From the UHGV virus genome UHGV-0261881: a stretch of DNA of 12,078 nucleotides. One strand, written 5' to 3'. Shown piece by piece: positions 298 to 11,937 of this stretch; within the stretch, counting starts at the first letter, position 1, and each line of letters begins with the position of its first letter. Made by a program: the position numbers and the translations under genes. The notes beneath the pieces are model-generated. The model did not search any database. It was not told the origin of the DNA and worked only from the letters and a program-made list of their open reading frames with translations. Source of the stretch: a virus.

Positions 298-1941
298 ATG
301 AAGCTGCTAGTGACATACATCAGGTGGAGTACTAAAGAGCAAGACTCAGGAGACTCCTTAAGACGGCAAACAAACCTCATTGATGCTTTCTACTCTAAGC
401 ACAAAAATGATTATTACCTTCTTCCTGCTCACAGATACGTTGATAAGGGTAAATCTGGTTTTCACCAGCAACATAAGAATCAAGGTTCTGACTTCAGACG
501 TATGTTTGAAAATGTTATGTCTGGGGCTATTCCAGAAGGTTCCTTGATTGTTGTAGAGAACTTTGACCGCTTCAGTAGGGCTGATATCGACACAGCTATA
601 GATGATGTCAGGCAGATACTGAGGAAAGGAGTCTCTATACTGACTCTGGGAGATGGTGAACTCTACGACAAATCAGCATTAACAGACCCTGTGAAGTTGA
701 TTAAGCACATCATCATAGCTGAGCGAGCACATCAGGAATCTCTTGTTAAACAAAAGCGTATAGCTCAGGTCTGGAACCATAAAACACAGCTTGCAAGAGA
801 ACTTAAGAAGCCTATGGGTAAGCAAGCCCCCGGATGGTTAGAGCTATCAGATGATGGTTCACACTACATCGTTGATGAAGATAAAGCGTCACTGGTGAAT
901 ATCATCTATGACAAGCGTCTTTCTGGTATGTCGATGTTTGCTATCTGCAAATGGCTAAACGAACAAGGTTACCCGACCATTAATCAGCGTAAGGTCAGAA
1001 TATCCAAGACTAAGAAACCTGATGGTAACTGGTCAGCATTAAGCGTTAAACACATCCTGACTTCACGAAGTGTATTAGGTTACCTTCCCGCTAAGATTTC
1101 TACAGAAGACCGTAAAACAGTGTTACGTGAAGAAATTGAAGGGTTCTATCCTCAGATTGTCACAGACTCTAAGTTTTACGCTGTACAGCAACTGTTAGAG
1201 GAAACAGGGAAGGGGAAAACATCCAGCGGTGAACACTGGCTATATGTGAACATACTGAAGGGGCTTATCCGTTGTAAGTGTGGGCTTGTAATGACTCCTA
1301 CAGGGATACGTAAACCCGTTTATCAAGGTACTTACCGTTGCAATGGTAATAAGGAGTCCCGTTGTAGCTACGGTACAGTGTCCAGAAAGTTACTTGATAC
1401 ACAGCTTTGTAGTCGTCTGTTTAGCAAACTGTCACAGCTACACGATGAAGCTACCGATACAGCTAAATTAGATGAACTGCAACGCAGACTAAACACCGTT
1501 GATAGTGAACTGGAAAAACTCACTGAGACGCTGATACAGCTTCCTAACATCACTCAGATTCAAGAAGCACTACGGGTTAAACAGGAAGAAAAAGATGAAC
1601 TGATAGTTCAGTTATCACGAGAAAAGGCGAGGGTAAAATCTGTATCAAGCTTGGATTTAAGCGGTCTTGATATGGAGTCTGTAGAGGGGAGAACTGAAGC
1701 CCAGATTATTATTAAGCGTTTGGTGAAAGAGATTGTTGTTTCTGGTAATGAAAAGCTGGTGGATATATATCTTCACAATGGAAATATGATTCGTGGTTTT
1801 CCTCTTGATGGTAAAGATGACCACACCTTAACGCTTGAAGAAGCAACCGATGAGATGCAGTCATTAGATGATATGCTTATTTTTGGTGAACCAGTAACAA
1901 GGATTTATCCTGCTGGTGATATGGAAGAGGTGGACGCTTAG
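298..1941 (+). CDS. Large serine recombinase (integrase), 547 aa
   Basis: N-terminal catalytic motifs YIRWSTKEQ (catalytic Ser), [15 protein letters not shown] and ERAHQESL. Cys-rich stretch IRCKCG...[14 protein letters not shown] consistent with a recombinase zinc ribbon. Coiled-coil-like C-terminal region ([21 protein letters not shown]). ATG start at 298. Position next to the att junction. Confidence 0.88.
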
Positions 1942-1944
1942 GAA

Positions 1945-1960
1945 TTGGTATTGTTACCAA
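1945..1960. terminator. Hairpin between convergent genes (TTGGTA-ttgt-TACCAA), possible bidirectional terminator without a clear U-tract
   Basis: Perfect 6-bp inverted repeat with a 4-nt loop, exactly filling the gap between the integrase stop (1939-1941) and the minus-strand gene stop (1961-1963). Confidence 0.3.
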
Positions 1961-2734
1961 TCAATAAGTGCCCTTCTTATTCGGATTCACACTAAATTTC
2001 CGTAAAGCATTACCCGACTTAAGCACTTTTGAAGCCTGCTCATTAGCTGAGGCTGTGAAGGTGCTTACACCATCTTTCACCGTGACATTTTTAGAGCAAT
2101 TGCTACGGACCCTTAGCGCTTCATCAGATAGCTCAGATGCTGAGTAGCTATACAGTTCCTGACACATCAACATAGGTGCGTTATTGCGTTCAGTAGTCAC
2201 GTTACCCGCATTCTTCTTAGAAGTTGCGCCACCATCATTTGTGGTAGCGGCCTTTCCAGTTGCAGCAGAGATATCAGTCTGACCAACAACAGCTTTAAAG
2301 TTAATTTCCTGAAAAGTTAGCTGGATTCTTAGACCATTTGAAATACCAACATCTTTAGATGCTTTAAAGCTTGTAATAATGGAATCATCAATTTTAATTC
2401 CGTCCTTACAGATAACAGAAATAATTTGCTTCTGGTCACGCCAGCTTTCAAGAGTGTCAATGAAGTTTTCTACTAATTGACCCTGACGAGTTAATAATAA
2501 GCTTCCTTCATAGCCAACTACAACGACACCACTAATAGTGATTGTTCTGGGTGCTCTTTGCACATTATCTGTGACGGTTTGCCCTGATTGCATGTTCTGT
2601 GTAGTCACCTGCATAGGGCTATCAAATTCCATGTTTTCAGTTGCTGATAAGGTTAAGAAGGCATCTACATTGTCTCTTAAGTGGAAATAGATGCCATCTT
2701 TGCCACTGTAACGAATCTGATTAGAGTAAATCAT
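1961..2734 (-). CDS. Hypothetical protein, 257 aa; weak resemblance to a phage distal-tail/structural protein given its position after the tape-measure-like gene
   Basis: Long ORF. The track's TTG start at 2755 is replaced here by the ATG at 2734-2732, which has a strong SD (aaggag, 7 nt upstream on the minus strand). Beta-rich-looking sequence ([15 protein letters not shown]). No catalytic motif recognised. Confidence 0.6.
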
Positions 2735-2813
2735 TAAATTCTCCTTTGATTTCAAAGGCTTAGTGTATTTTAATCATTTTTAACCAAGCCTTTGATATAT
2801 AAGTATTTTCTCT

Positions 2814-2895
2814 GTTAAGCGTGAGCTACGTAAATTCTATTTTTCAGTGCAGGTATTAACTTTGCTTTATTCACGTAGCATTCGACTATTCATAG
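2814..2895 (-). promoter_or_regulatory. Promoter-like cassette, copy A, upstream of the 257-aa gene
   Basis: About 37 bp nearly identical to copy B (taagcgtgagctacgtaaattctatttttcagtg). On the minus strand it reads ...ctgaaaaaTAGAATttacgtagc..., a -10-like TAGAAT with no good -35. Dyad arms GCTACGTAAAT (2825-2835) and ATTCACGTAGC (2869-2879) flank and overlap the -10. Confidence 0.45.
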
Positions 2896-2968
2896 TTGAA
2901 TCGTCATACTAGATAAAGATTAATAGATTGCCATGTGTGGCAATAAATATTAGTAGTTCTAACATTGT

Positions 2969-5044
2969 TTATTCCTCTGGGTAAGCTGAGCTAATCAAGG
3001 TATCTTCCTGCATACGATTAATATGCGATGTGGTTCTTTCATCAATAACCTTTCCATCAAGTACCGTCTGAGTTGTGATATTGATTGTCTGAGGCTGAAT
3101 GTTTACTGACGGCTTGATAACCTTTAAATCTTGTGTGAATGTTTCCACTCGACCTTTCAGATTATTTAATGCTTCAGGTGAAAACTGTGGAACATCTTTT
3201 GATTTGCCCTGAACCATAGCCCATAAAACAGCGGCTAAAGAGTTCATGTCACCAGACAATGCTTGGTCTGTAGGTTCCACCTTTGACCTTACAACTTTGT
3301 CAATTGGATTATCTGACTTACTCATCTGACGTTCATAGAACGGTTTAACAATGGAGTTAATCACATCAGTTGCCATACCGACAATCATTACTTTGGTAAT
3401 TGCATCAGCTACAGATAATTTTCCTTTACCACCTTCAACACTACCGGAACGTGAATTAATTCTTCCTGCTGCTGTATTTGCTACATTTCCAAGCGTGGAA
3501 ATAGCCCTAATTAAGCTCCAGATGCCACCTACAGCACCAATACCAGACCTTACAGCAACAATACCAGCAAGTCCCTTTAATGCACTTAACAGGCCATTTG
3601 CGATACCATCAGCTACAGCTTTTTGAGTGTCATTTAATTCTCTGTAAGCAAGGGTCACTCTGTCAAAGAATCCCTGCACTCGGTAGCTAATCGTGGTTAA
3701 ATCATCAATACCGTTTGACATACTTTTCATCAAGTCGCCAAAATGTTCACCAAGATTTTTAGATTGCCCACCTAGCGAATTAAGTAAATTAGTCAGTGAC
3801 CTTGTAAAGTCTGTTAAACCTTCCTGTGAACCGTCGAACATTAAGGCCAGATTATTATTCCATGAATTAGAAAGGCGGCCTAACTGCGTCTGAGTAGAGT
3901 TAATAATCTTTTCCCATCCACCAGCTTTATCAATCATCCTTCCCATTTCAGCGGATACTTTAGGAAGAACATCTTTAGAAAGAACTTTACCGTCTTTCAT
4001 AGCCTTGTCTAATTCTTCTGTAGTCATCCCAAGGCTTCTGGCAAATAACTGGAAAGCACCTGCCATTCTGTCACCTAATTGACCACGTAGCTCTTCAGCC
4101 TGAATCTTCCCTTTAGAAGCCATCTGCTCGAAAGCTTTCAGAATCCCGTTAATTTCATCAGTACTTAAACCCATTAATCTGGATGTGCCAATCACATTAC
4201 TAAATAAGGATTCTTTCTGGCCTGCATCCATATCACCAGCACCAGCGGAAAACTTAGCAAAACTGCTTAATGTTTCAATCTGGTCAACACCAGTATTATT
4301 AGCAAGATTCTTAACAAATTCTGTAGCTCGTTTAGCACCTTCATCACCTAAAACGAATTGTGCCGCTCGTTGTGATGCTTCTTTTTTCAGACCAACCTCC
4401 ATAATCTTCCTGTAAGCTTCTAAGGCTGTCTGAAAACTATAAATGGCTGTACCTGCTTTGATTGCACTTGTAGCTAATACATCCAGACCATTCGAAGCAT
4501 TTTCACTGTGATTATTTTTGCTGGTGGTCTTGTTAAACTTAGAAAGTGTTTCACGAAGAGACTGATTTAATTTTGCTAACTCACGATTAAAAGCTTCGTT
4601 TCCAAGTGTCTTGGATTTACTACTTAATGCGTAAAACTGACTCTTAATGTATTTCTCGACAATTGGGTTAAGACCTTTCAGCTTGCTCATATTCGCTGAA
4701 TAAGCTGCTGTGATTGCTCTGTTTCCGCTAATTCGTGGTTGCCTTGATTGTTTTGGAGGATTAACAGTGTCATTAAATCTGGTGGCAAACTGAAATGCTT
4801 TTGTGCTTCTTGCTCTCTGTTCAATCTTGTCAAAGGTCTTATTAAACTTCCTTTCAAGCTGCCCTAAAGAACTTGTCAGATTGCTGTCAAGTTGCTTGGT
4901 ATCGACCTTAAACGCTCTATTCAAATTGCGTTCAATTCTTTGTGCTGACTGCAAAGCTGCCTTTTCAACTCTTTGCAAGCCCTTAATAACGTTTTCACTG
5001 AAACTAAGTTCAACGATAAAACTATCAACTGTGAATTTGCTCAT
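2969..5044 (-). CDS. Tape-measure-like protein (phage tail length tape measure domain), 691 aa
   Basis: Central block GLSTDEINGILKAFEQMASKGKIQAEELRGQLGDRMAGAFQLFARSLGMTTEELDKAMKDGKV resembles the tape-measure core domain. Gly/Ala-rich hydrophobic segment (GLLSALKGLAGIVAVRSGIGAVGGIWSLIRAISTLG) and coiled-coil-like N-terminus are typical of tape measure proteins. ATG start with SD agaggtg. Confidence 0.65.
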   Translation of the reverse strand: MSKFTVDSFIVELSFSENVIKGLQRVEKAALQSAQRIERNLNRAFKVDTKQLDSNLTSSLGQLERKFNKTFDKIEQRARSTKAFQFATRFNDTVNPPKQSRQPRISGNRAITAAYSANMSKLKGLNPIVEKYIKSQFYALSSKSKTLGNEAFNRELAKLNQSLRETLSKFNKTTSKNNHSENASNGLDVLATSAIKAGTAIYSFQTALEAYRKIMEVGLKKEASQRAAQFVLGDEGAKRATEFVKNLANNTGVDQIETLSSFAKFSAGAGDMDAGQKESLFSNVIGTSRLMGLSTDEINGILKAFEQMASKGKIQAEELRGQLGDRMAGAFQLFARSLGMTTEELDKAMKDGKVLSKDVLPKVSAEMGRMIDKAGGWEKIINSTQTQLGRLSNSWNNNLALMFDGSQEGLTDFTRSLTNLLNSLGGQSKNLGEHFGDLMKSMSNGIDDLTTISYRVQGFFDRVTLAYRELNDTQKAVADGIANGLLSALKGLAGIVAVRSGIGAVGGIWSLIRAISTLGNVANTAAGRINSRSGSVEGGKGKLSVADAITKVMIVGMATDVINSIVKPFYERQMSKSDNPIDKVVRSKVEPTDQALSGDMNSLAAVLWAMVQGKSKDVPQFSPEALNNLKGRVETFTQDLKVIKPSVNIQPQTINITTQTVLDGKVIDERTTSHINRMQEDTLISSAYPEE

Positions 5045-5057
5045 TCATGTTTCACCT

Positions 5058-5140
5058 CTTTAAGCGTGAGCTACGTAAATTCTATTTTTCAGTGTGGATA
5101 TTAGCTTTACAGATTTCATGTAGCACACATAGGATTCGAT
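5058..5140 (-). promoter_or_regulatory. Promoter-like cassette, copy B, immediately upstream of the tape-measure-like gene
   Basis: Same core as copy A. -10-like TAGAAT on the minus strand (plus 5079-5084) sits about 35 nt upstream of the ATG at 5044. Lies between an intrinsic terminator (5160-5201) and the gene start. Confidence 0.5.
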
Positions 5141-5159
5141 AGAAGACTATCTCATATAC

Positions 5160-5201
5160 AAAAAAGGGAGAAACTACCGATATCACTCGATAATCTCTCC
5201 C
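5160..5201 (-). terminator. Rho-independent terminator after the 67-aa gene
   Basis: Minus strand reads GGGAGAgattatcgagtgatatcggtagttTCTCCC followed by TTTTTT: 6-bp GC-rich stem plus U-tract, about 25 nt downstream of the stop at 5227. Confidence 0.6.
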
Positions 5202-5226
5202 GTTGATTTTCACCCAACCAATCTTT

Positions 5227-5430
5227 TTACCTAACCAGATAATAATTACCATCTTCACCGACAATCTGACAATCACTTGGTAATTTATCAAGACACCATT
5301 TAGCGATTCTTCTGATTCTGTTATTTTGCTTAGAGGTGGATGATTTGATTCGTTTTGGTTTGTTGGGTTGTTCTTTCAGTCGTTCACTAATTGCCTTGAT
5401 GAGTTCATAGCGTTCTGTTAAATCAATCAT
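5227..5430 (-). CDS. Hypothetical small basic protein, 67 aa
   Basis: ATG start with a strong SD (aaggaggtg). N-terminus MIDLTERYEL is paralogous to the upstream 102-aa protein (MSDLTERDKR). Confidence 0.55.
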   Translation of the reverse strand: MIDLTERYELIKAISERLKEQPNKPKRIKSSTSKQNNRIRRIAKWCLDKLPSDCQIVGEDGNYYLVR

Positions 5431-5455
5431 TCACCACCTCCTTTTTAATTCGATT

Positions 5456-5764
5456 TTAATCTAAGTAGTGTATACACTCGACACCGCGTTCATTCTTTTG
5501 AATTTCATAACGTAGTGAAAGACCAGTTTGATAATACACAGTATCAAGCTTATTTATCTTATCCTTGAGTTCGATAAGAAGTCGCGTTAAATCATCCCGA
5601 CCATCACACTTTAGTTCGGCAAGAGGCTTTTCTTCCATACGACCAATAAGATATTCAGTGACCTCCTGAATATCACCAAGAGTCATTTTAATTTCATTGA
5701 ACCTATCTTCAAAAGGCTCCATCACCCATTTCATTCTTTTATCGCGTTCTGTTAAATCACTCAT
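5456..5764 (-). CDS. Hypothetical small acidic protein, 102 aa
   Basis: ATG start. Its start overlaps the stop region of the upstream 234-aa gene (5764 versus 5773), suggesting translational coupling. Shares the M-x-DLTER N-terminus with the 67-aa protein. Confidence 0.6.
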   Translation of the reverse strand: MSDLTERDKRMKWVMEPFEDRFNEIKMTLGDIQEVTEYLIGRMEEKPLAELKCDGRDDLTRLLIELKDKINKLDTVYYQTGLSLRYEIQKNERGVECIHYLD

Positions 5765-5772
5765 TATTCACC

Positions 5773-6477
5773 TCAAACAGCCTTGCTAAATTCTCGTGGA
5801 ACACTCAGAAAATCATTGAAGCTGATAATCTGTGCCAACTCTTGACGGTACTCCTTAGCCAGCGCTTGATGGTCACTAATCAGCTTAGCCAGTCTTGATT
5901 TCAGCAATTTAATCTCATTTTCTCTTGCTTTCATCAGTTTCTCTTTGGCAATTTCTTCAAGCTCAGCTTGTGATTTATCAGCAACAATTAGAGACAGTTG
6001 ATGTGGCGCTCTGATGGCCCTTTCCGTACGAATAACCCTTTGACCTTCTGGTAAATCTGCAATCACTTTACCAATCTCTACAGGGTCATACCCCCAACCG
6101 TCACGGTCTAGTCGAGAGAAATAAGCATAAGGATTGGTTTGAAGCTCCATCAAAATAGCCATTTCGTCGATTTCGTCTTCAAGCTTGGACTGAATTTTCT
6201 CGTAAACACTTCTCATTGCTTCTTGAGAGTCTTTAATAGCTTGGAAATATCGGCGTTGCAGCTTCAGTTTCAAATCAAGCTCACATTTCTCATTCATCGA
6301 AAAATCAATTTCAACTCTTGGAATCTCGAGTGGTTCTGGTGGAATATATGGACCTTTATTTACTTCGTGTGATTCCCGCCAAGCTCTATCAAAAGATTCA
6401 CGCAAAGTTAATTCGTGAATATCAAGTGCACTTGGTCTGTTCTCAACAATCATTTCATTTTCATCACGGATAGCCAT
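5773..6477 (-). CDS. Hypothetical protein, 234 aa, charged and coiled-coil-rich
   Basis: Long ORF with ATG start. Its SD (agaagagga) lies inside the 3' arm of an 11-bp hairpin. No motif recognised. Confidence 0.6.
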   Translation of the reverse strand: MAIRDENEMIVENRPSALDIHELTLRESFDRAWRESHEVNKGPYIPPEPLEIPRVEIDFSMNEKCELDLKLKLQRRYFQAIKDSQEAMRSVYEKIQSKLEDEIDEMAILMELQTNPYAYFSRLDRDGWGYDPVEIGKVIADLPEGQRVIRTERAIRAPHQLSLIVADKSQAELEEIAKEKLMKARENEIKLLKSRLAKLISDHQALAKEYRQELAQIISFNDFLSVPREFSKAV

Positions 6478-6487
6478 TAATATTTTT

Positions 6488-6556
6488 CCTCTTCTAAGAT
6501 AATTTACGTTTCAGTTTTTAAAAAGCACACCTGACAACCTACGAACTTAGAAGAGG
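6488..6556 (-). promoter_or_regulatory. 5'-UTR hairpin sequestering the SD of the 234-aa gene
   Basis: Perfect 11-bp inverted repeat CCTCTTCTAAG (6488-6498) / CTTAGAAGAGG (6546-6556) with a 47-nt loop. On the minus-strand mRNA the 3' arm contains the SD, 10 nt before the ATG. Confidence 0.5.
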
Positions 6557-6594
6557 CTTAAAAGGCGTTTGCCAAGTATGCTTTTTAAAAGCTG

Positions 6595-6631
6595 AAAAAA
6601 GCCCTAGATAACTAAAACGCTATAAAGGGCT
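6595..6631 (-). terminator. Rho-independent terminator ending the upstream minus-strand operon
   Basis: Minus strand reads AGCCCTttatagcgttttagttatctAGGGCT followed by TTTTT(T). Confidence 0.5.
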
Positions 6632-6949
6632 AAGGTGAAGAAATTAAAACATCTAAAGGATTCAATAACGAATGAACAAGAGTACTTTTCGAGATGACCT
6701 CTCAGGTTATATAAGAGGTCATGTAGCGAAAAGCATTGCACCTTTCCAAATCAGAATATCCATCCATCGGATTATTGAAAATATGATTTTAGGAAGAGTT
6801 GCTCTTCCCTATAATTAAAATTATGTCATACTTAAGGTTATTTGTCAACAGCCTTTTAACAGATTGGTAACATCAATTTCTATTTACTGTGTTGCCTACC
6901 CAGCAACCAACAAATAAGCCAAGCAACGTCCAAGCAATTATTAAGCCCA

Positions 6950-7279
6950 TTAGTGAACCCTCACAGAATCCGTAACCAAAATATTGTCGCTGTACAGGAT
7001 TGTCACAGCACCTTTCAAAAATTGCTCTGGGGAAATACTGTATTTGTTCGTTTGCTCGATAACCAATCTTTTCATGTTGCTGTCTTTAATTGGTAGCATC
7101 ATTCGAGGCTCGTTAAACTCCACCGACTGAATAAAGTCAGAGATGCTTTCCGCATTATCAGTCATTAACTCTAACAACTTATCAAAGTCAACGCTAACAC
7201 CTACATCAGCGAAAGCCTGAATCATCATGGCGGTGTCGGTATCAATAAAAATCTGTAGTGGGAAGTTTAATTCTCTCAT
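6950..7279 (-). CDS. Hypothetical protein, 109 aa
   Basis: ATG start with SD aaggag. Lies immediately downstream (minus strand) of structured repeat copy 1. Confidence 0.55.
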   Translation of the reverse strand: MRELNFPLQIFIDTDTAMMIQAFADVGVSVDFDKLLELMTDNAESISDFIQSVEFNEPRMMLPIKDSNMKRLVIEQTNKYSISPEQFLKGAVTILYSDNILVTDSVRVH

Positions 7280-7304
7280 TTCTTAAAATCTCCTTTTTAC
7301 CAGA

Positions 7305-7430
7305 CCTCCTCAATCGCTCTGTAACGAGCTAAACAGTCTTTTTCAGGGGTAGCCTGTACAGTGGTATTACCCACCCTAAAATAAGGTAGTTTTTTGCGTT
7401 AGAATGCGATTGAGAGCGTCTGAGAAGCTG
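7305..7430 (+). repeat. Structured inverted-terminus repeat (SIR), copy 1, between the HNH-like gene and the 109-aa gene
   Basis: Aligns base-for-base in the same order with copy 2 (same orientation) and with the reverse complement of copy 3. Shared blocks GCTCTGTAACGAG, CAGGGGTAG, TACCCACCCTAAAATAA, GTTAGAATGCG and AGAGCGTCTGAGAAGCT. Termini are mutually complementary (CTCAATCGC / GCGATTGAG). Confidence 0.75.
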
Positions 7431-7435
7431 TTTTT

Positions 7436-7723
7436 CTAATTTCTCTTAAAGTCTCGGACTTGCATAAGATTTTTTGGTCTGGTATCGGCTCTGTTACCAT
7501 TTCGATGGATAATTTGCTTGTTGGATTGATAGCCATGATAAAGGAACCAGACAACATATTTCACGTAGAAAGTATATCGGCCTATATTAAATGTTTTGTT
7601 GCCGTAGTCGTCGGTATTTATCGTGACTGACTCTCCATCAGACCAGCACAGGGAATCACTGGATTCATCATAGATAAGGTGTTCTGTAAAATATCGTCTA
7701 ACATCTTCATGCCAAGGTTTCAT
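7436..7723 (-). CDS. Small HNH-family endonuclease-like protein, 95 aa
   Basis: C-terminal YVKYVVWFLYHGYQSNKQIIHRNGNRADTRPKNLMQV resembles the HNH motif of phage-type HNH nucleases (consensus-like ...W..hnG...IDHINGN..DNR..NLR). ATG start overlaps the upstream gene by 4 nt. Confidence 0.55.
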   Translation of the reverse strand: MKPWHEDVRRYFTEHLIYDESSDSLCWSDGESVTINTDDYGNKTFNIGRYTFYVKYVVWFLYHGYQSNKQIIHRNGNRADTRPKNLMQVRDFKRN

Positions 7724-7935
7724 AAAACCTCCTCACCCCAATAACCTAATTCAATCTTGTGACGCTCAAACCATTCCGGTTTAACTGCTGTTTTCAGTAC
7801 TTCATTTGGGTCAATGGCTTTAATGAAAATATCTTTTGAGTTATGGATGTCACCGAATCCGTTTCCTTTAATCAGGAGGTCGGAGATGTAGCGAATCATT
7901 TTATCTGTGTGGTATTCAAAGGTAACGCATAGCAT
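7720..7935 (-). CDS. Hypothetical protein, 71 aa
   Basis: ATG start overlapping the upstream stop (TAATG). Part of a tightly coupled operon. Confidence 0.5.
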   Translation of the reverse strand: MLCVTFEYHTDKMIRYISDLLIKGNGFGDIHNSKDIFIKAIDPNEVLKTAVKPEWFERHKIELGYWGEEVL

Positions 7936-8213
7936 TAAACCTCCATCGCTAACTTGTGAATCTTAAGACTCAATAGACGGGCAATATCAATTTTAAAGCC
8001 GTTAAGTGCCTTCAAAGTATCTAAAGCGTCCTGACTAATTCGGATGTGCTTACGACCTTTAGAGACTGGATATTTAAGTAAATCCGACTCAGTGACCTCT
8101 TTAGCAATTGCAAGTTGCATAATAGTTTGATGAGGTAAGTTAGTTGCTTGTTTAATTCTGGTAAGCTCGTTAAAAGCTTCCTCTGAAATACGGGTTAATG
8201 TGTGTTTATTCAT
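7935..8213 (-). CDS. Putative ribbon-helix-helix (RHH)-like DNA-binding protein, 92 aa
   Basis: N-terminus KHTLTRISEEAFNELTRIKQATNLPHQTIMQLAIAKE fits a strand-helix-helix pattern like CopG/Arc-type RHH. A second similar pattern (HIRISQDALDTLKALNGFKIDIARLL) follows. Stop of the upstream gene directly abuts its ATG. Confidence 0.4.
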   Translation of the reverse strand: MNKHTLTRISEEAFNELTRIKQATNLPHQTIMQLAIAKEVTESDLLKYPVSKGRKHIRISQDALDTLKALNGFKIDIARLLSLKIHKLAMEV

Positions 8214-8768
8214 TTAAAATTCCTCTGTAACTAAATACGGGTCAAACTCGAAATCTGGTTCACTAATCGTAAGGCTGATATTGCCCACTTCCGCATGATG
8301 ATTAATTGTCTCAATAACTTTCATGCAAATAGTGGCTAAGTTAGCGCAATATTTATCGCTTGGTAATTCATAGCTAAGTCTGGTTGCTTGTCTTTGAAGA
8401 TGGCTCGTCACTGTGCTTGAGCTAATCTTATCAAGGCTTCGAAGCAAATAGAAAATCTTCCGGTGATAGTTATCCCTTCCAAAGCTGCGACAAGTGCCGA
8501 TAATTACATCTTCAATTCGTGATGGTAGTTGCTCGTAAGAATCAAAGCCCATCAAGAAAGTTTTTAAAGTATTTTCTTTTTCTTTGCGTGTTGGCATATA
8601 TCTGTCTCGTGGCGTAATGCTACGAATGACCGCTTCAATGTTCTTACGTTCGGATTTGCTAAAGGTTGGGACTTCGTAGCTGGTGGGGGTGTCTGTGTAG
8701 CTGTAACCGTTGCTTCTGTTTCTTGCTTTGCTCTCTTCAAGAAACTTTTGAAAATCTTTGTCGTTCAT
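8214..8768 (-). CDS. Hypothetical protein, 184 aa, first gene of the operon
   Basis: ATG start 43 nt downstream of a consensus-like promoter. No motif recognised. Confidence 0.6.
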   Translation of the reverse strand: MNDKDFQKFLEESKARNRSNGYSYTDTPTSYEVPTFSKSERKNIEAVIRSITPRDRYMPTRKEKENTLKTFLMGFDSYEQLPSRIEDVIIGTCRSFGRDNYHRKIFYLLRSLDKISSSTVTSHLQRQATRLSYELPSDKYCANLATICMKVIETINHHAEVGNISLTISEPDFEFDPYLVTEEF

Positions 8769-8817
8769 TCATAAGCTGGCCCTTATAATTGTTAATTTCC
8801 TGTTAACTATATATACA

Positions 8818-8846
8818 ATCTTAGCAGTTTCAAAGGCTAATGTCAA
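8818..8846 (-). promoter_or_regulatory. Sigma70-type promoter of the minus-strand four-gene operon
   Basis: Minus strand reads TTGACA (plus 8846-8841), a 17-nt spacer, then TAAGAT (plus 8823-8818). Confidence 0.6.
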
Positions 8847-8854
8847 GCATTTTT

Positions 8855-8884
8855 TTAACATTTGATTAACATTTATGGTATAAT
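8855..8884 (+). promoter_or_regulatory. Extended -10 promoter firing rightward into the ORF-poor region
   Basis: TTAACA (8855-8860), 18-nt spacer, TGgTATAAT (8876-8884). Divergent from the operon promoter. Confidence 0.55.
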
Positions 8885-8917
8885 GGTTTTATGAGAGAGG
8901 GAAAATATAAAGGCGTG

Positions 8918-8975
8918 GCTATGAGGTTTATTCGATAAACCGAATCAACTATGAGAATGGTCACATGGTTATTGC
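8918..8975 (+). repeat. Direct repeat Rep2, copy A (contains cgaatcaactatgag)
   Basis: Homologous to 10493-10592 in the same orientation (ctatgagRtt ... cgaatcaactatgag ... aatggttatt). Confidence 0.6.
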
Positions 8976-8986
8976 ATTGCACACAG

Positions 8987-9082
8987 GCCTCTTCAATCGC
9001 TCTGTAACGAGTTAAATGGCCTCTTCAGGTCAACTCATAAGGTCAGGTACTTTTTGTATCAGAATGCGATTGAGAGCGTCTT
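8987..9082 (+). repeat. Structured repeat (SIR), copy 2 (shorter), forming the leader of a small ORF
   Basis: Shares the 5' block cttcaatcGCTCTGTAACGAG and 3' block AGAATGCGATTGAGAGCGTCT with copy 1. The central part differs. Terminal 8-bp complementarity TCAATCGC / GCGATTGA. Confidence 0.7.
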
Positions 9083-9095
9083 ACAAGGAAAACTA

Positions 9096-9272
9096 ATGGT
9101 AAACCTCCCTCCTGAGCTGGGGTCACCTGATGTTTGGGCTGGTGGAGGTGTGGGTCTGATTGCAGGCCTGCTACTTCGCTACGTCCTCGTCAGAGTGCTT
9201 GTTGTCTTTAAACTGTTCGGTCGTACATGGACGCTTGACCTTAAGGATAATGACCACACAGACCCCCGTTAA
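9096..9272 (+). CDS. Putative small membrane protein, 58 aa
   Basis: ATG at 9096 with SD aagga 7 nt upstream. Translation MVNLPPELGSPDVWAGGGVGLIAGLLLRYVLVRVLVVFKLFGRTWTLDLKDNDHTDPR has one hydrophobic helix and a charged tail. Weak hairpin (CCCCT/AGGGG, 9286-9309) downstream. Confidence 0.35.
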   Translation: MVNLPPELGSPDVWAGGGVGLIAGLLLRYVLVRVLVVFKLFGRTWTLDLKDNDHTDPR

Positions 9273-9391
9273 ACCCCCTTCAAAACCCCTATACCATCTC
9301 GTACAGGGGTATCTTTAGCATTTTGTGCTATCTATTAAAAAATAGCTTGACAGAACCGGAAAGCTGTATTTATCAAGTATTCACCTCTCTG

Positions 9392-9564
9392 ACAGTGATT
9401 TCTAAAAATACTTATTTTTCAATGAGTTGTAATCACCCATATATAGAGAACTGACAAGTCTCTTCACAGAGAACTCTGTAACCTTAACAGTAATTTCTAA
9501 AAATACTTATTTTTCAATGAGTTGTAATCACCCAATATATAAGGCTGTCCAGTACCTTCACAGA
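9392..9564 (+). repeat. Tandem direct repeat, two units of ~80 bp with a 95-bp period
   Basis: Units 9392-9470 and 9487-9564 share a ~55-bp near-identical core (acagtRatttctaaaaatacttatttttcaatgagttgtaatcacccatatata) and a downstream cttcacaga. A GCTCTGTAAC-like motif lies between the units (9474-9482). Confidence 0.7.
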
Positions 9565-10375
9565 TGACTTCAAGCCTTCTTAGCTATCCACTAAGCGGGA
9601 GAAGAGCGATAACCCCAGAGAGGGAAGCTCCCTTCTAATTGGTATTGTTATGAGGATGCTTCATCCGAATCATCTACCAATCCCTAAACCGACTCTCTTA
9701 ACCAGCCCTTTACGTTATTCGTTCACAGTGTTGATAAGTGGTTTTGCCCTCTGTTTCTGTTATCATCGGGCTTACCTTATCAGGGCTTTGAAATGCCCTG
9801 TAACTCCCCTCTTAACGGGAGAGAAAGAACATAGTGACCCCAAGCGAAGCGCCCCTCTAAAAAGATTTTTTAGCTACTTTGTTTAAAAGCACATCAAACG
9901 ATACATTTTATTGATTTAGGTCAAAGACAAAAGCATTGACAAAATGGTAAGATTGTTCACATGACCTTACTTAACAGATTCTTAAGAGCTTTGAAACGGC
10001 CTATTTAACAAGGTCACTACCTACGGTTCTTCGTTTTCCTTCTTTCTAGGTAGTCATCTGTTAAGAGTTTTTCAGTCTTACTCTTAAGAATCACTGTTAA
10101 GATGATACTCTCCCCTTCGGGTTATATCGTATCTCTTCTCCCGTTAAACACCCCTTCCTAACTATCTACATAATCACTTCTAAGAATCTTACAAGGTAAT
10201 ATCCAGACCTCTTATAGTTGACCTGATACAGAAGTTTTACAGGCATACTCTCTAGGTTACTAATCGGGTGCTATCAAGGGCCACTAAACGAGAGAGGGGA
10301 TATGTGACCATAGGGGAACCCCTCCTGTTAAAAAGGCCACTTAGAAGTCTGAGACTTTAGTAAAATCTGTGAATA

Positions 10376-10492
10376 TAGCTTCTCAGGCGCTCTGTAACGC
10401 ATTCTAAGCGATTTTACCCCTTTATTTTAAGGTGGGTGGTACATCCCTATAGACTACCCCTAAAAATGGGGTTAAAACTCGCTACAGAGCTT
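10376..10492 (-). repeat. Structured repeat (SIR), copy 3, inverted relative to copies 1 and 2
   Basis: The reverse complement of 10371-10500 aligns along its length with copy 1 (blocks GCTCTGTAGCGAG, AGGGGTAG, TACCACCCACCTTAAAATAA, GCTTAGAATGCG, AGAGCGCCTGAGAAGCT). Termini are complementary (GCTCTGTAGCG / CGTTACAGAGC). Confidence 0.7.
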
Positions 10493-10592
10493 TCTATGAG
10501 ATTAGCTTCATGAAGTAATTCATTACTGAATCACCTAATCGAATCAACTATGAGGCTTGGTAAGATTGTGCAAAATCTGTACAATGGTTATT
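10493..10592 (+). repeat. Direct repeat Rep2, copy B
   Basis: See Rep2 copy A. Here it abuts SIR copy 3. Confidence 0.55.
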
Positions 10593-10850
10593 TGGCTTCT
10601 GAAAATTTTTACAAAAATCATAGTAGCCCTCTTTGAATCTCATCTTCCCCGAATCTTCAAAAATATCTGACAGATGTCTGTAGCTGCTAAGTACCCGTCA
10701 CACCAGCTATGTGACCCCCTTTGCAAAAAAGCCAAATATCTATTGACTTTCTATGTGAATTGCTATAAAGGCATCTATCTAGACCTTTAACTGTATAAAT
10801 ACACATGACAACAAACGCCCGTTAAGTGTCTATATAAAAAGGTAGCTGTA

Positions 10851-10895
10851 GCTATAGACAACAATTGTGATAATTGATTTAATGGCTATAGACAA
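10851..10895 (+). promoter_or_regulatory. Two direct GCTATAGACAA repeats upstream of the small recombinase gene (candidate operator or binding sites)
   Basis: Identical 11-mers at 10851-10861 and 10885-10895 (34-bp spacing). Related TATATAG-like motifs at 10828-10836 and 10914-10922. Confidence 0.4.
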
Positions 10896-10935
10896 GCAAG
10901 ACAGACCTTTGTTGACTATATAGAGAGATAAGAAC

Positions 10936-11505
10936 ATGCGTACATTCCTTTATGCTCGTGTATCAGTTGATGACCTCACCACACAAAACCAAGTAGAAGC
11001 TGTTAAACGTGCTGGTTATGAAGTCAAACCTTCACGAGTGATTGAGGAAGTTATTAGTGGTGCTACACCAGCTATGGACAGACCACAATTTGTAAAGCTG
11101 GTGGATAAGCTGGAAGAAGGTGATTGTCTTGTAGTGACCAAGATTGACCGCTTAGGAAGGGATAACATTGATGTACAGAAGACCGTCACAATGTTACTGG
11201 ATATGGGTGTGAAGCTAATTTGTTTAGACCTGCCTGTAAAAGACCTTTCAAGTGCTGAAGGTAAACTTATCCTTCAACTATTCAGTACCTTTGCAGAGTT
11301 TGAACTTAACCGCATCAGAGAGCGAACCAGAGAGGGCTTAGAACGAGCTAAAGCACAAGGTAAGGTGTTGGGTCGTCCTGTAGCTAAAAACACTACAGAG
11401 GCCGTTTTAGAGCATAAGGCAAAGGGATTGTCACAAAGTCAGGTTGCAAAGCTTCTGAATCTCTCTGTGAGAACGGTTAGCCGTCACTGGACAAAGACAC
11501 TGTAA
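10936..11505 (+). CDS. Small serine recombinase (resolvase/invertase family), 189 aa
   Basis: Motifs YARVS (catalytic Ser), VVTKIDRLGRD and ERTREGLERAKAQGKVLGRP, plus a C-terminal helix-turn-helix (GLSQSQVAKLLNLSVRTVSRH). ATG start. Confidence 0.88.
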   Translation: MRTFLYARVSVDDLTTQNQVEAVKRAGYEVKPSRVIEEVISGATPAMDRPQFVKLVDKLEEGDCLVVTKIDRLGRDNIDVQKTVTMLLDMGVKLICLDLPVKDLSSAEGKLILQLFSTFAEFELNRIRERTREGLERAKAQGKVLGRPVAKNTTEAVLEHKAKGLSQSQVAKLLNLSVRTVSRHWTKTL

Positions 11506-11526
11506 GAAACTTAGTAGCATCTTCAT

Positions 11527-11550
11527 AGCCTCCTTCATGGGGGCTTTTTT
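11527..11550 (+). terminator. Rho-independent terminator after the small recombinase gene
   Basis: AGCCTCC-ttcat-GGGGGCT stem (one G-U pair) followed by TTTTTT, about 22 nt after the stop. Confidence 0.6.
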
Positions 11551-11558
11551 GTATCCAC

Positions 11559-11626
11559 TCTCTAAGCGTGTCCTACGCAAAATCTCCTGAACACTTACCC
11601 ACCCTCAGAAATAACTTTCACGTAAG
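11559..11626. repeat. Diverged third copy of the promoter-like cassette (copy C), containing a TTACCCACCCT block shared with the SIR repeats
   Basis: ctctaagcgtgtcctacgcaaaatctc resembles the cassette A/B core. The loop contains ttacccaccctcagaaataa, similar to TACCCACCCTAAAATAA in SIR copy 1. 3' arm ctttcacgtaag. Confidence 0.45.
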
Positions 11627-11937
11627 AAACTGTTAAGCAGCTTGATAGTTATTCTGTGTGACCAAACATCTATATATCGTTATATAGTCCTGTATATAGC
11701 ACTTTTCTAGGAGTCGAGAGAGGGACGACTAACACGATACAGTTTACCCTGAAAAGAGACTTCACAGATTCTCTATATATTTCAATAAGTTAGGCTAAAA
11801 AGAGACTATACCGATACTGCATAGAATCTGTGTAAAACTGCTTAGATACTTGGGAAAATGCCTTTAAATTGAATAGGGATTCACCTGATATTGTCCTGTT
11901 ATTAACAGGTAGTTGAATGTACGTGTTTAGCTATGTA

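Follow-up and report, generated by a model that had tools for sequence, protein, structure and literature searches.

In sites of the cer type, ~180 bp of accessory DNA on the XerC side are wrapped by PepA and ArgR; an ArgR box is found ~100 bp from the core, the accessory arm occupies the interval between this box and the XerC/XerD core, A-T tracts recur with a phasing of ~10.5 bp, and Rcd is transcribed toward the core from the Pcer promoter (PMC2831885, PMC5357621). A cer-like site is carried by ColE2/MOBQ4 plasmids (PMC6856555). Another described group, the promoter-early stem-loops (PeSLs) of T4-type phages, is defined by a strong σ70 early promoter together with a terminator stem-loop (PMC2839356). 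Here, we analysed a stretch of 12,078 nucleotides from the virus genome UHGV-0261881 (the window), which holds an island of ~11 kb (span 298-11900) between yegR and yegS and, within the island, three related imperfect hairpin repeats (copies 1, 2 and 3). Judged from sequence comparison, the repeats are best, if tentatively, explained as DNA-level palindromes derived from cer-type accessory sequence, with copy 2 as a decayed cer-like site and copies 1 and 3 as core-less paralogues; we put this explanation slightly below an even chance.

Related loci (64 in total) were collected from genomes, metagenomes and viral contigs, and 5426 complete Escherichia coli genomes were used for the chromosome survey. 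Folding was controlled with dinucleotide shuffles. Plasmids were compared using PLSDB, RNA families using Rfam 15 with E-value thresholds, and phages by blastn of positions 7000-10900 against 50,697 phage records. The scan for ERIC and REP cores used the consensus sequences of the two families.

A repeat search found a 42-nt left arm three times (at 7301, 8984 and 10374) and a 37-nt right arm at 7391 and 9051, and each copy folds as a single imperfect hairpin of 105-125 nt (Table 1). In local BLAST comparisons, copy 2 has only the two arms in common with copy 1, in direct orientation (83% over 42 nt and 86% over 37 nt). Copy 3 aligns with copy 1 as its reverse complement, with 71% identity over 114 nt that include the interior and a flank of ~45 nt (AAGTCYGAGACTTTA...AGCTTCTCAG), which copy 3 carries in inverted form. 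The initial annotation had described three related hairpin repeats, and these are real, but copy 3 is not a direct repeat; it had been aligned directly because the box GCTCTGTAACG stands on the + strand in all three copies. Copy 1 folds at -44.1 kcal/mol (z = -4.1 on the + strand and -4.5 on the - strand, relative to the shuffles), and copy 3 gives z = -2.7 (+) and -4.0 (-). For copy 2 the values are -3.4 (+) and only -1.05 (-), so that every copy folds beyond its shuffles, with the - strand of copy 2 as the exception.

The terminal pairings that had been quoted were all found in the sequence, namely CTCAATCGC (7309-7317) with GCGATTGAG (7406-7414) in copy 1, TCAATCGC with GCGATTGA in copy 2 and GCTCTGTAACG (10389-10399) with CGCTACAGAGC (10480-10490) in copy 3. 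The last of these contains one A.C on the + strand that is G.T on the - strand, where the closing stem reads GCTCTGTAGCG/CGTTACAGAGC. The register differs in copy 3 because the arms consist of tandem units of ~10 nt and the pairing partner shifts by one unit. The units of copy 1 are listed in Table 1; their counterparts are CGCTTAGAAT, GCGTTACAGA and GCGTCTGAGA in copy 3 (in the copy 1 sense) and GTATCAGAAT, GCGATTGAGA and GCGTCTTACA in copy 2. In the hairpin copies the left arm repeats the right arm in inverted form, and this inverted second arm gives rise both to the hairpin potential and to pairing slippage by one unit. The middle unit of copy 3 differs at three positions (GCGATTGAG to GCGTTACAG), which makes the invariant box GCTCTGTARCG its partner; in copy 1 the middle unit is paired instead by an extra CTCAATCGC. 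The change of register is slippage among similar tandem units and not covariation at homologous positions. Of the earlier statement that pairing is kept while the paired bases differ, the retention of the hairpin therefore stands and the implied covariation does not.

The only matches to the repeats outside the islands were arm-only matches in plasmids. Against ColE2-type plasmids, the copy 1 arm aligns at 89.5% identity over 38 nt (E = 8e-4, 28 Gb searched). The matching stretch is present in 1176 PLSDB plasmids, comprising small ColE2-type replicons such as pColE8, in which it lies ~200 nt upstream of rep, and large plasmids with the same replicon cluster. It ends 8-9 nt before GGGTACGTACAA-CAGGAG-TTATGGTAAAT, which matches the cer core, GGTGCGTACAA-TTAAGGGA-TTATGGTAAAT (XerC arm, spacer and XerD arm). 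The XerD-binding arm of 11 bp is TTATGGTAAAT in cer and TTATGTTAAAT in dif. A G/T difference between the cer and dif XerD arms has been reported (PMC5935869). The alignment of element and plasmid has in common a 5' AATCGC, a T-run and the 3' arm; the T-run and GCGTYAGAAN GCGNNTGAGA GCGT together are 87-90% identical over 38-39 nt just upstream of the plasmid XerC arm, and phasing at ~10 nt is found in plasmids and islands alike. Both are small circular or excisable mobile elements of E. coli. By this homology, the arm of the element appears to be the counterpart of the cer-like accessory arm beside the XerC site.

A Xer-core-like site follows copy 2 in the window, and in most islands it reads GCGTCTTACAA-GGAAATT-TAATGGTAAAT, with ten of 11 XerD-like positions. 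The order of parts is that of a cer-like site, with the arm, ...ACAA, a spacer of 6-8 bp and T(T/A)ATGGTAAAT, preceded at about -100 by a small palindrome whose correspondence, judged by eye, is tentative. We read this site as a Xer core because of a pattern-based test and a profile alignment. The pattern ACAA-N6-8-XerD-like (ACAA-N7-TAATGGTAAAT) has a chance expectation of 1e-5 to 1e-4 and occurs at one site in the window, and in nhmmer the alignment of the copy 2 profile continues across the Xer core of the plasmids, with a gap of 11 nt (E = 2e-6 to 2e-4). Relative to the plasmids, a deletion of 11-14 nt takes out GGGTACG, which is most of the XerC arm, and keeps the inner TACAA; the resulting 7-bp spacer is within the allowed range. 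The plasmid site also has an ARG-box-like sequence (TGTGCATAGTTATGCAGG) at a distance that, by eye, matches that of the island palindrome.

Several observations weigh against this derivation. The XerC-like arm at copy 2 is poor (seven of 11 positions), the palindrome at about -100 of copy 2 (TTGCATTGCA) is, by eye, not a canonical 18-bp ARG box, and the plasmid homology is solid only for ~40 nt and the core-like end. Copy 2 of the window itself gave no match in PLSDB at E <= 0.01, and global alignment with shuffling of its full Xer core was not significant (p = 0.19). Nor is the XerD-like 11-mer, taken by itself, rare in this AT-rich window (11 matches versus 6.4 expected). The core-like site overlaps the ATG (9096) of the open reading frame (ORF) for a 58-aa product, and the 11-mer forms codons 1-3 of this ORF and so is constrained; it persists in islands without copy 2. 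A scan of the window found no Xer-core-like pattern after the arm of copy 1 or copy 3, which leaves the present function of these two copies unexplained. Unlike the island arm, which is duplicated in inverted form, the plasmid sequence has only weak long-range palindromy that is not conserved (pColE8). The earlier suggestion of a recombination or binding site thus gains support from the accessory-arm homology and from the vestigial core after copy 2, but finds no core at copies 1 and 3.

Table 1. Positions of the repeats and of neighbouring features in the window
Feature	Position	Strand	Description
Copy 1 hairpin	7301-7422	+	Within the conserved slot 1 block (~7283-7460)
Copy 1 3' arm	7396-7425	+	Three tandem ~10-nt units, GCGTTAGAAT, GCGATTGAGA and GCGTCTGAGA; most conserved part of the family
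Slot 1 block	7283-7460	+	Ribosome-binding-site region of the 109-aa ORF, copy 1 hairpin, then a 38-nt extension ending AAAGTCTCGGACT
Small palindrome	8964-8981	+	TATTGCATTGCACACAGG; ~95-112 nt upstream of the core-like site; compared by eye
Copy 2	8984-9087	+	Leader of the 58-aa ORF; arms as in copy 1, interior shorter and unrelated
Xer-core-like site	9076-9104	+	GCGTCTTACAA (XerC-like, 7/11), GGAAAAC, TAATGGTAAAC (XerD-like, 9/11)
Copy 3	10345-10497	-	Reverse-complement homologue of the copy 1 block, flank AAGTCTGAGACTTTAG included
DNA related to Felixounavirus	2201-2710		92% identical to NBEco005
66-nt repeat	2815-2880, 5060-5125		85% identity; upstream of the Dit-like and tape-measure genes
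Separate palindrome	6509-6597		29-nt arms, 86% complementary; 31-nt spacer
HNH gene	7436-7723		
92-aa protein	7935-8213		
σ70-like promoter	8855-8884		11/12 matches
Second indel element	8925-8957, 10505-10556		30-52 nt; adjoins copy 2 and copy 3
58-aa product	9096-9272		Small hydrophobic protein
Tandem 95-bp units	9392-9534		Two units, 98% identical over 48-nt cores
Region of CTGTTAAGA-type motifs	9461-10333		
Related ~50-nt modules	9582-9636, 9812-9860, 10283-10335		In the ORF-poor region
Stretch identical to NBEco005	9636-9686		51 nt
Small serine recombinase gene	10936-11505		
Partial inverted copies of the 95-bp units	11744-11823		2.2 kb rightward of the tandem units

In 21 of the loci a good dif-like core (AGTGCGTAAAA-CAGCTA-TTATGTTAAAA; for example L049:4396, L005:7511 and L039:3130) lies where the window has its small serine recombinase gene, and the two are mutually exclusive in the sampled loci. 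They look like alternative multimer-resolution modules, consistent with an element that replicates as a circle, and in their presence the degenerate core of copy 2 looks superseded. The conserved arm would derive from the accessory arm in the cer-like XerCD site of ColE2-type plasmids, or the two would go back to one ancestor. Copy 2 would have kept the cer-like order from the small palindrome through the accessory arm and XerC-like end to the 7-bp spacer and XerD-like arm, and the longer, core-less and mutually inverted copies 1 and 3 would have moved to other intergenic slots by recombination. On DNA, the elements would serve, or have served, the excised circular island as architectural or recombination-accessory sequences wrapped by protein, with predicted binding and wrapping by PepA/ArgR and an ancestral function in resolution. 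Unlike in plasmids with a cer-like site, multimers would now be resolved by the small serine recombinase (in the window) or the dif-like core (in other islands), the present copies would be relics or architectural sites, and the RNA hairpins in transcripts would be a by-product. In a bolder form, which we consider improbable, the two direct copies and the inverted copy would be live wrapping sites of PepA/ArgR type (or for a helper-phage factor). These would synapse in the excised 11-kb circle much as two cer sites do in a plasmid dimer, and would thereby register the topology or multimeric state of the replicating satellite. They would in turn control the divergent early promoters and also the small membrane protein, the start codon of which falls within the vestigial XerD arm.

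The sequence contexts of the copies are those first described. Copy 1 lies in a minus operon between the stop codon of the HNH ORF (7436) and the start of the 109-aa ORF (7279), copy 2 lies between a σ70-like promoter and the 58-aa ORF, and copy 3 is in an ORF-poor stretch with no gene downstream. Copies 1 and 2 have one DNA orientation and opposite senses of transcription. Positions 7000-10900 were matched in 564 of the 5426 chromosome-survey genomes, always on the chromosome, and copy 1 in 422 of them (median one place and at most seven per genome). Every copy 1 match locus that was examined was an island or an island remnant, apart from the arm-only plasmid matches, and BLAST and nhmmer placed the element at only three slots across the 64 loci. 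The search for further copies in host genomes, which had been proposed earlier, thus returned none outside the island family except the plasmid arms.

Islands differ in whether a given slot is filled, empty or replaced. The slot 1 block always follows p71 directly, or follows the HNH gene inserted after p71; the 38-nt extension at its end provides the last nine codons and the stop codon of the HNH ORF. The block is 97-100% identical among islands with unrelated flanks on both sides (at least three right-flank and at least two left-flank types). At slot 2, presence or absence is precise in an otherwise homologous leader, with CACAGG[CCTC...TTACAAGG]AAA in filled sites and CACAGGAAA in empty sites. 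The edges have only a 3-bp AGG (or CAGG/AAGG) repeat, which is equally compatible with deletion by microhomology, and some empty sites still contain pieces from within copy 2, suggestive of deletion. Slot 3 contains copy 3, or a promoter with a GGT-repeat RNA-like unit and a terminator, or almost nothing, and no target duplication is evident there; at slots 2 and 3 the change is a simple indel or replacement between homologous flanks. The presence of slot 1 and that of copy 2 assort independently (~16 loci with both, 13 with copy 2 only, 17 with slot 1 only and seven with neither). In one locus (L057), the apical 17 nt of the slot 1 copy are inverted. This inversion and the copy 2 fragments at empty sites are the reason for which we invoke palindrome dynamics at the DNA level.

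Covariation was examined in 28 distinct copy 2 homologues. None of the 31 pairs was compensatory and all covariation measures equalled those of the shuffles (covariation 0.063 versus 0.065; paired cells 98.4% versus 98.5%). For the copy 1/3 family, RNAalifold found no common long stem (covariation term -0.44). Comparison with Rfam 15 gave only sub-threshold matches, to models of the microRNA (miRNA)-precursor type and other eukaryotic RNAs, and a known RNA family was rejected on this basis. The structured RNA put forward in the initial annotation is therefore not borne out by its homologues. Two further sets of observations count against a purely DNA-level explanation. The copy 1 type and the type found in locus L041 are collinear, and when the minimum-free-energy structure of each was mapped onto their alignment at least four compensatory pairs were found (44-121 CG/GC, 50-115 and 51-114 AU/UA, and 53-110 CG/AU); between element types the long hairpin is kept through different pairings. 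Hairpin potential is maintained across the element types, but with four or five independent types and with DNA-level palindrome processes such as template switching, selection on RNA and on DNA cannot be separated. In addition, G.U pairs favour the copy 1 sense. In copy 2 this sense is better by 6 kcal/mol on average (25 of 28 sequences); the gain is 3-7 kcal/mol in most sequences of copy 3 and of the L041 type, and the copy 1 type has no bias. The favoured sense is the transcribed strand for copy 2 only. Selection on a single-stranded hairpin would predict such a one-strand preference.

The repeats could instead be cis-acting RNA hairpins placed 17-24 nt upstream of a start codon, which would serve mRNA processing or stability (as an RNase III-type site or 5' stabiliser) or translational insulation; we regard this as doubtful, while giving it real weight. 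The 58-aa ORF comes after copy 2 and the 109-aa ORF after copy 1 read as its reverse complement, both copies ending just before a Shine-Dalgarno sequence and ATG in the transcribed direction, and a double-stranded RNA stem works in either orientation. The folds are far more stable than those of shuffles, the G.U pairs that improve the transcribed sense of copy 2 are fixed, the common variants of copy 2 are wobble-compatible (36 cells) with disruptive variants rare (14 cells), and compensatory or alternative pairings keep the potential across element types. Such a role is at odds, however, with the lack of statistical covariation, with sequence being kept more strictly than structure, and with the better-folding strand, which is the untranscribed one at slot 1 in the L041 and L050 types and the - strand at slot 3. 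No gene follows copy 3, every slot is dispensable in many islands, slots 1 and 2 assort independently, and no Rfam family corresponds. We favour the DNA-level explanation over an RNA family because copy 2 shows no covariation, copies 1 and 3 have no common stem and Rfam has no match, and because copies 1 and 2 are transcribed in opposite senses despite having the same DNA orientation. That opposition would suit an antisense pair, to which we give hardly any credence: the RNA of copy 2 is complementary over 28 and 38 nt to that of copy 1 in the leftward operon mRNA, and to that of copy 3 if read rightward, in the manner of trans-encoded type I toxin-antitoxin repeats or the P4 seqA/B/C system. 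The 58-aa product is small and hydrophobic, as such a pair might have, but copy 2 and slot 1 assort independently, and both RNAs would be locked in stable hairpins with loops that are not complementary. Strand-specific hairpins of ~100 nt near replication functions also recall the single-strand initiation (ssi) hairpins of plasmids, reportedly described by Nomura et al. in 1991 (cited in PMC6856555 and PMC6854812); the G.T/G.U asymmetry favours one strand, and copies 1 and 2 are mirrored with respect to copy 3. Unlike ssi hairpins, the repeats have as their plasmid homologue a cer-like site and not a documented ssi, and no primase or Rep domain is found in the island proteins. Published Frpo sequences are unrelated 330-nt elements, and this candidate was rejected.

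It is rather unlikely, in our estimate, that the repeats are selfish or passively duplicated miniature palindromes, similar to miniature inverted-repeat transposable elements (MITEs), or junction cassettes spread by homologous recombination like the PeSLs of T4, with no function of their own. The edges between filled and empty sites are precise, with a possible 3-bp AGG repeat at slot 2, another cassette is replaced by the element at slot 3, the near-identical slot 1 block joins unrelated flanks, its flank travels with copy 3, and the island family is extremely mosaic. PeSLs offer a precedent (PMC2839356, PMC4122927), being likewise short, conserved, intergenic stem-loop cassettes repeated in one mobile genome, which border indels and gene replacements in a mosaic family, as the slot 1 block does where it joins unrelated gene modules. 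Unlike PeSLs, the repeats lack a σ70 promoter (promoter-like matches inside the elements reach only nine of 12 positions, on the copy 1 sense strand) and a terminator with a stem followed by a U-tract, occupy three slots only, and form a hairpin of ~120 nt and not a short terminator stem. An intrinsic terminator or a PeSL was rejected for the absence of a U-tract directly after the stem and of a good promoter. The repeats also resemble REP/BIME, ERIC/IRU and Correia-type elements, as imperfect palindromes of ~100-130 bp in transcribed intergenic regions, in either orientation and with presence/absence polymorphism. They differ from REP/BIME and ERIC/IRU in having no sequence relation, no dispersal over the chromosome, at most three slots per island and no clear target duplication. 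The scan gave no match to the ERIC core at up to three mismatches or to the REP core at up to two, so that the known enterobacterial intergenic repeat considered in the initial annotation is not what these are, and the distribution likewise rules out a genome-wide repeat. As for MITEs, imperfect inverted arms are present, but dispersed copies and an autonomous insertion sequence with the same ends are not. With three fixed slots in one island family, none elsewhere in the surveyed E. coli genomes, an ambiguous target duplication and some empty sites that look like deletions, the mobile palindrome first envisaged is weakly supported, by the precise slot edges, and homology to a functional plasmid site points to descent from functional sequence. 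Finally, it is very improbable that the repeats are crossover or accessory sites for the serine recombinases of the island, acting in an inversion of the segment from 7.3 to 10.5 kb between copies 1 and 3 or as a res-like site of the small recombinase. Copies 1 and 3 stand 3 kb apart in inverted orientation, a recombinase gene of Hin/resolvase type lies 440 nt from copy 3, and the element length of ~120 bp is near that of a res site. However, gene order and orientation are the same in all six loci that hold both copies, copy 3 is found without the small recombinase and the recombinase without copy 3, and the element is not adjacent to the recombinase gene; an inversion switch was rejected, no inverted isomer being seen in those six loci.

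The island in the window has genes for two serine recombinases (one large, one small), for an HNH endonuclease and for baseplate (Dit-like) and tape-measure proteins, besides several small ORFs, and relatives of this island are integrated at tonB/yciI and yecN/yecE. The Dit-like protein is 76% identical to its counterpart in Felixounaviruses, and the mosaic ~11-kb family is a candidate satellite of virulent Felixounaviruses; no description of it was found in the literature searched. A copy of the repeat in a helper phage was sought and rejected: the phage-record search gave only a 51-58-nt match in the terminal region and none for the repeats, and nhmmer of the repeats against bases 1-45,000 of NBEco005 gave E = 0.4. 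No replication protein was recognized among the island proteins, and no tRNA or tmRNA was found in the window. The stretch identical to NBEco005 belongs to the non-coding terminal 1.2 kb of that phage, where it is present at two places per record. Motifs of the CTGTTAAGA type fill that terminal region and number 16 in the window (4.9 expected), mostly in the ORF-poor stretch. Together, the stretch and the motifs may mimic a packaging or replication site.

Other features lie near the slots. The second indel element ends in CGAATCAACTATGAG, has CTATGAG direct repeats at its flanks and varies in presence among the islands. A resemblance between the left flanks of copies 3 and 2, suggestive by eye of a circle junction, was not significant by BLAST and was dropped. 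The HNH gene is found in 14-18 of 62 loci, inserted between p71 and the conserved block with DNA 97-100% identical where present; its protein has no phage homologue by tblastn, and it looks like a recently spreading homing-type insertion. The repeat was rejected as its homing target, as it also occurs without HNH directly after p71. The alternative occupant of slot 3 (e.g. L052:4645-4885 and L063:5295-5520) has a σ70 promoter (TTGACG-17-TATAAT), ~170 nt of variable GGT/GGTA repeats, a hairpin and a clean intrinsic terminator; it looks like a small RNA (sRNA) gene and is possibly a protein sponge. The partial inverted copies of the 95-bp units bracket, with the tandem units, copy 3 and the small recombinase gene, and could be facing promoters or invertase sites. 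The three ~50-nt modules (TAAxCGxGAGA...GACC...CCCTxCT), each with a short hairpin of GGGG/CCCC type, may mark the ends of small transcripts. Elsewhere in the island, the 66-nt repeat, with its internal inverted repeat (GCTACGTRAAT...ATTTACGTAGC), is probably a regulatory site common to the two genes that it precedes. The 92-aa protein has two ribbon-helix-helix-like repeats by eye and a weak DndE-like match, and is probably a repressor acting on the TGTTAAC/TTAACATTT repeats between divergent promoters. The separate palindrome, in a 470-nt gap upstream of the operon of the 234-aa ORF, gave the sole Rfam near-match, a chance one to a miRNA-precursor model.

If the repeats do derive from cer-type accessory sequence, plasmid Xer accessory DNA would have been captured, palindromised and multiplied in a different kind of mobile element. 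Were they live wrapping sites, an Rcd-like checkpoint would have been rebuilt in a satellite of virulent Felixounaviruses. The repeats are also a cautionary case, in that an apparent conservation of pairing despite sequence change can stem from slippage of tandem units in an inverted duplication, with no selection at the RNA level. The context of the island, with its homologues of Felixounavirus tape-measure and baseplate proteins, its possible mimic of a phage terminal sequence, its alternative resolution modules and its sRNA-like cassettes, may matter more than the repeats themselves.

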